A DNA stretch of 64,000 nt from Octopus vulgaris. Taxonomy: Eukaryota. The notes beneath the pieces were generated by a model. The model saw only the letters and a program-made list of their open reading frames with translations, ran no database searches and had not been told where the DNA came from. Positions 4,191-4,336 of the stretch are shown here, piece after piece. Position numbers and translations under genes: made by a program. The stretch is from positions 7,316,001-7,380,000 of the forward strand of contig OX597837.1 in assembly GCA_951406725.2 (NCBI GenBank), read 5' to 3'. Position 1 is the stretch's first letter, and each line of letters opens with the position of its first letter.

Positions 4191-4211
4191 ATCATTAAAA
4201 ACAAGCAGATG
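4191..4211 (-). CDS. RBFOX1: Candidate 21-nt in-frame microexon of RBFOX (HLLVFND), between RGSK and GFGFVTF
   Basis: About 60-nt pyrimidine tract ending CTCACTTTGTGCAG, then CATCTGCTTGTTTTTAATGAT, then consensus donor GTAAGT. No stop in phase 0. Confidence 0.6.
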
Positions 4212-4336
4212 CTGCACAAAGTGAGATGGAATTGAGAACAGAGCAAAAAAAAAAAACAGGAAAAAAAGGGAAGAAATATGTAAAATGCTTATTTTTTTAA
4301 AGCATTAGGATGTCTCATGAGAAAAACGATGCAGGA

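Follow-up and report, generated by a model that had tools for sequence, protein, structure and literature searches.

A well-formed 21-nt microexon-like site in octopus RBFOX, with evidence that leans against its use

Introduction

Across animals, splicing in nerve and muscle is under the control of RBFOX, whose RRM core is nearly invariant. Can this core nevertheless be altered by a microexon? A sequence-only reading of the Octopus vulgaris genome had picked out a 21-nt segment in an intron that interrupts the RRM, and proposed that its inclusion would split RNP1 and switch off or retune RNA binding. If this were true, a regulated loop insert would offer a novel means of setting RBFOX dose and would tie the eMIC program directly to that of RBFOX in the largest nervous system among invertebrates, and RBFOX would be retuned by insertion, as opposed to the deletion known from vertebrates. 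An unspliced segment would be a common pseudo-exon, and any novelty depends on its being spliced. In the literature outside subscription papers and bioRxiv supplements, we came across no description of either an in-frame insert at this junction or the splicing of RBFOX in octopus. The candidate sequence proved good, but the existing evidence leans against its use.

The candidate lies in an RRM intron of RBFOX

The window, a stretch of 64,000 nt (G000:C24:7316001-7380000) in a genome of 2.8 Gb, covers part of an RBFOX gene that lies on the minus strand and extends over at least 232 kb, with exons placed by tblastn from C24:7494797 to 7262311. The host gene is RBFOX: its exons are 100% identical to annotated octopus RBFOX proteins across the RRM, and the O. 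bimaculoides RBFOX protein matched human RBFOX1 RRM structures with an E-value of 1e-45. The coordinates of the relevant features are listed in Table 1.

As had been read from the sequence, the candidate lies in the intron that follows the NERGSK exon. The GFGFVTF exon does not fall between window positions 4211 and 20058, a placement named beforehand as fatal to the idea; it maps beyond the window. The intron between these two exons is 21,777 nt long, the candidate lies 15,846 nt into it, and the 93-nt exon begins after another 5,910 nt. The 54-nt exon, the candidate and the 93-nt exon have phase 0 in common. The residues flanking the junction are invariant in 43/43 aligned RRMs, all of which were chosen as search matches. 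About 210 nt downstream of the candidate, the assembly has a gap of 100 N (window 3880-3979) that may hide intron sequence, and a (CAC)n-type repeat of ~570 nt lies upstream (window 4340-4907).

Table 1 Features of the RBFOX gene in and next to the window (window positions unless stated otherwise).
Feature	Position	Strand	Basis or remark
RBFOX exon with RNP2 and helix 1	31013..31159	(-)	genome and protein matches
RBFOX 54-nt exon, ends NERGSK (β2 and β2-β3 loop)	20058..20111	(-)	protein match; a contig splices it to the 93-nt exon
Window share of the candidate-bearing intron	1..20057	(-)	54-nt exon to 93-nt exon
CTAAT, predicted branch-point-like motif	4304..4308	(-)	just upstream of the AG-free zone
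Acceptor-like TGCAG with 74-nt AG-free pyrimidine tract	4212..4287	(-)	TGCAG itself at 4216-4212
Candidate 21-nt microexon, HLLVFND, phase 0/0	4191..4211	(-)	stop-free; skipped in the spliced contig
GTAAGT donor-like site	4185..4190	(-)	sequence
93-nt GFGFVTF exon	G000:C24:7314188-7314280, outside the window	(-)	mapped here

The site carries the signal architecture of eMIC-type microexons

The elements of the original proposal were all found on the minus strand: a TGCAG acceptor, 21 in-frame nucleotides coding for HLLVFND, and a GTAAGT donor. The pyrimidine tract is indeed unusually long, being free of AG over 74 nt and 82% pyrimidine. In the 50 nt before the candidate YAG the pyrimidine fraction is 0.82, which is higher than in all nine real RBFOX acceptors that we scored (0.58-0.78). 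Two TGC motifs are present as described, the first at 4245-4243 (~ -34, directly after the T run) and the second overlapping the acceptor itself. The CTAAT motif lies at -97, ~16 nt upstream of the last AG that precedes the tract.

We wondered whether this arrangement corresponds to that of neural microexons. Two papers describe eMIC-dependent fly exons with a signal architecture like that of the candidate (PMC8797185) and SRRM3/4 targets in which a long distance separates the AG from both the tract and the branch point (bioRxiv 10.1101/2024.09.17.613571), and the upstream UGC and microexon architecture fit the eMIC/SRRM4 code published there, as had been suggested. Like these exons, the candidate falls in the range of 3-27 nt, preserves the frame, is bounded by canonical splice sites, and combines a long AG-free zone with a distant strong tract, UGC and a CUAAY motif, the CTAAT lying just outside its AG-free zone. 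Its strong donor is shared with mammalian eMIC microexons, whereas eMIC exons of the fly have weak donors in the part of PMC8797185 that treats them. There is a further difference: eMIC microexons are defined by neural inclusion and eMIC dependence, and the candidate is a match to them in sequence architecture.

These likenesses argue for a neuron-enriched microexon, activated by an eMIC-bearing SRRM2/3/4 protein, that would yield an attenuated or dominant-negative RBFOX in neurons, a reading that we hold tentatively and at well under even confidence. The full eMIC-type order of branch point, distant pyrimidine tract, UGC and AG is in place, and the octopus genome contains an exon for the eMIC domain: one SRRM_C (eMIC) match exceeded the Pfam cut-off (G000:C25:37317492-37317626), reading ...SPSHLDKRRIT at an apparent exon end and intron. 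Species-restricted neural exons are also common according to a portion of bioRxiv 10.64898/2026.09.05.749416. On the other side, one would have to explain why neurons should include an exon that weakens a regulator of their own, and the nine rows for A2bp1 of the fly (PMC8797185, Table S2) have lengths of 33-724 nt, so that no microexon of up to 27 nt is among them; that table likewise lent no support to an insect insert at this junction, for which no other support was found.

An octopus gene at G000:C20:31134567-31137639, which we take to be APBB/Fe65-like by the motifs of that family (WW and two PTB-like regions), reads as one open frame of 1,024 codons. It is intronless across the expected site of a 6-nt microexon that is reported to be bilaterian-ancestral, and so could not serve as a positive control.

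We found no (T)GCATG in the 500 nt that flank the candidate on each side, and hence no motif support for RBFOX feedback on it. Positions 4150-4300 match the genome once, in a search that skips simple repeats, and a transposon origin of the tract was therefore unsupported within that limit. Two weaker frame-preserving microexon-like sites of 18 and 24 nt, with non-consensus donors, lie beyond the window in upstream RBFOX introns on the minus strand (C24:7486876 and 7407568).

Such sites are locally rare and expected genome-wide

How often would a site of this kind arise by chance? We scanned 464 kb around the gene on both strands, or 928 kb of strand sequence, and found 192 sites of the form YAG-(3-30 nt)-GTAAGT. 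Only the candidate combined an AG-free zone of at least 50 nt with a pyrimidine fraction of at least 0.75, thresholds that were chosen post hoc with the candidate known, and this sole passing site is on the sense strand, in frame and stop-free, which speaks against a pseudo-exon. From the separate rates, the expected number of frame-preserving passers is 0.34 in the 928 kb, 0.008 in the candidate intron and ~2,000 genome-wide. Adding TGC and CTAAY lowers this to 0.0002 in the intron and ~40 in the genome, a figure resting on three sites with the candidate among them. The candidate is thus locally unusual, yet with ~2,000 (or ~40) chance sites expected it does not exceed what such a scan should turn up in 2.8 Gb of genome.

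Real coding microexons mostly preserve the reading frame. To see whether look-alikes do, we used a pattern of 12 pyrimidines, one base, TGCAG, 3-33 nt and GTAAGT, which matched the genome 68 times; 13 matches that belong to three families of repeats or tandem copies were removed, leaving 55. Lengths divisible by three made up 18/55, with 35% expected at random, and the fractions were 4/13 with an AG-free zone of at least 50, 2/7 when a pyrimidine fraction of at least 0.75 was added, and 0/1 with CTAAY as well. The class is a proxy, as the candidate does not match the pattern letter for letter and the strict subsets are tiny. A reversed-pattern control (27 versus 68) was set aside because the reversed pattern contains CpG. 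Since there is no excess of frame-preserving lengths, the look-alike class looks mostly like chance, which counts against a neural microexon. In a tandem family at G000:C26:165760-470581 and C64:4582, an 18-nt unit with strong splice signals recurs six times almost unchanged; it may be a short exon in a cluster of duplicated genes.

Inclusion would lengthen a loop rather than split RNP1

We considered what the insert would do to the protein using a model of the RBFOX RRM of an annelid that was built from an alignment (pLDDT 86); a single-sequence fold was unusable (pLDDT 43). The model has a strand at 28-35, a loop at 36-41 (NERGSK) and a strand at 42-48 (GFGFVTF), which places the exon junction at the boundary between the β2-β3 loop and strand β3. 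Because of this position, inclusion would extend the loop, leaving GFGFVTF whole and displacing only the first residue of RNP1, a Lys. The description of the candidate as splitting RNP1 was therefore overstated; in this model inclusion would tune RNP1, not split it.

If the segment were a neural microexon, the loop would grow from 6 to 13 residues and Asp would replace Lys before β3; the RRM would likely fold and bind UGCAUG more weakly, and the position of the junction at a loop/strand boundary favors such an insert. Two studies bear on this loop. S155A, which lies in it, changes the affinity of human RBFOX1 from 1.33 to 10.5 nM, a 7.9-fold reduction (PMC5737849), and binding has been altered in part through engineered substitutions at N151 and E152 (PMC6307825). 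As changes in this loop affect binding, weaker RNA binding with the fold kept is the likely effect of inclusion. In its fullest form, an eMIC-driven insert would mimic the end of β2 within the RNA-contacting loop, link both neural splicing programs and retune the affinity or specificity of RBFOX, a chain that we regard as possible and rather doubtful.

Transcript contigs and proteins give no sign of inclusion

The proposal called for a search of junction reads. As run here, on assembled contigs from 8 of 24 runs, in which minor isoforms drop out and may be hidden, the comparison with the exons yielded a single spliced contig, and it skips the candidate: a 473-nt contig of run X4 (depth 30) joins the 54-nt exon to the 93-nt exon and on to the VNNA exon. 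Among runs X1, X5, X9 and X13, the 54-nt exon was matched only by one unspliced contig (X1). Contigs of runs X7, X8 and X21 had no alignment on the 93-nt exon, and such gaps prove nothing.

We then assembled 429 RBFOX-like proteins, comprising the best 120 of 219, 4,666 and 169 matches together with three cluster look-ups, one of which gave 139 of 240 members. Among these listed proteins 391 are canonical at the junction, 8 are without the 93-nt exon, 5 have longer inserts, 4 are otherwise different and 21 are without the motif. The peptides HLLVF, LLVFN and LVFND occur in none of the 429. The five inserts were rejected as counterparts, four being intron read-throughs (29-47 aa, V...Q) and one a 13-aa Hyalella gene model. 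All 17 cephalopod-type RRMs listed (7 from O. bimaculoides, 1 from O. vulgaris, 1 from Argonauta, 2 from Sepia and 6 further) are canonical, with 0/17 carrying the candidate or any other microexon-sized insert. A JGI scan for a 3-33-nt insert between both exon motifs, with one Asn codon fixed and no positive control, returned one match, in an unrelated non-coding stretch, and carries no weight for these reasons. In a separate comparison with other genomes of the survey, no stretch resembled the candidate.

The RNA and protein negatives are weak in that contigs drop minor isoforms, and the evidence consists of contigs only and one cephalopod genome. As evidence against inclusion the protein negatives are moderate, since the protein ranking favors canonical forms and some octopus isoforms (the current O. 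bimaculoides X1/X2 and those of O. sinensis) are not among the listed proteins. The sequence-only reading thus holds for position, frame and signal architecture. Inclusion, the point on which a neural microexon depends, gained no support: the one spliced contig skips the candidate and 0/429 listed proteins carry it.

The candidate as a probable pseudo-exon

With the candidate in none of the transcripts and proteins examined, a look-alike is more likely than a neuronal switch. We judge, with a little better than even confidence, that the candidate is a pseudo-exon, unused or used at noise level; this and all other odds given here are judgements and were not computed. A T-rich tract of a type common in the octopus genome would by chance run into a TGCAG that has a GTAAGT 21 nt behind it. 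As an exon of 21 nt is presumably below what ordinary exon definition can handle in an intron of 22 kb, the site would stay silent, and normal mRNA would have the 54-nt exon joined straight to the 93-nt exon.

Could the candidate instead be descended from its neighbor? LVFND can be aligned with IIFNE in the exon before it at a BLOSUM score of 19, which was reached by 92/20,000 random stop-free intronic 21-mers, and an in-frame 8-nt identity was reached by 115/20,000 random 21-mers. In both segments, moreover, the first bases are CA, preceded by CAG, and a GTAAGT comes directly after the last base. The candidate might then be a shrunken duplicate of the 54-nt exon, either mutually exclusive with it or a decaying remnant; its substitution would delete 11 residues (the end of helix 1, β2 and the loop) and likely inactivate the RRM. 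However, the likeness test was post hoc, and its rates rise to 358/20,000 against the whole RRM and 1,245/20,000 against the whole protein. The flanking DNA is without homology (160/496 random windows score as high), the lengths differ (21 versus 54 nt), and no protein among the 429 listed has GFGFV without the RGSK motif. A duplicate therefore seems improbable. The weak peptide likeness, which also speaks against a pseudo-exon, makes it somewhat more probable that the candidate is, or once was, a real exon.

Known RBFOX switches

In the relevant part of PMC3126832, RBFOX is switched by skipping of a 93-nt, 31-aa exon (Rbfox2 exon 6, Rbfox3 exon 8), which yields a dominant-negative delta-RRM form in mammals and flies. 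Octopus RBFOX belongs to the same family and has the same layout of a 54-nt and a 93-nt exon. The delta-RRM switch deletes half of the RRM, whereas the candidate would insert seven residues. At the octopus 93-nt exon, TGCATG occurs at -319, at -9 overlapping the acceptor, and at +2 overlapping the non-consensus donor; this exon has the motifs of RBFOX autoregulation and the candidate does not. Forms without the exon are annotated in 8 mollusc or annelid proteins among the 429 listed, and in none of the 17 cephalopod-type proteins listed. The motifs at both splice sites, together with these annotated skipped forms, suggest that the negative feedback of vertebrate RBFOX is kept in lophotrochozoans. 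Skipping of the 93-nt exon is a clearer RBFOX switch in octopus than the candidate, and if the candidate is a pseudo-exon, this skipping is likely the real off-switch.

The same source describes, in its account of mammalian Rbfox2, a cryptic exon 5* that is conserved and regulated and lies in intron 5, immediately ahead of the RRM cassette exon. Like the candidate, it is a small hidden exon in the intron directly preceding that cassette, a precedent that favors a neural microexon. It differs in being 41 nt long, frame-shifting, NMD-linked, promoted by RBFOX and conserved to birds; the candidate has 21 nt, is in frame, is without a nearby GCAUG and is known from the sequence of one genome. A closer parallel would arise if the GTAAGT donor served a 97-nt frame-shifting poison exon that begins after an upstream AG (4289-4288) and is predicted to trigger NMD. 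That AG is the first after CTAAT, exon 5* offers a precedent in the same intron (PMC3126832, same account), and NMD targets do not enter protein sets and seldom appear in contigs. But the AG is not preceded by a pyrimidine tract, there is no RBFOX motif within 500 nt and no transcript support, and we consider such a poison exon most unlikely.

The acceptor of the 54-nt exon (window 20111) is a point at which several RBFOX proteins of molluscs vary by a single Gln, a difference that resembles the 3-nt alternative acceptor of Rbfox3 exon 6 described in a section of PMC3126832.
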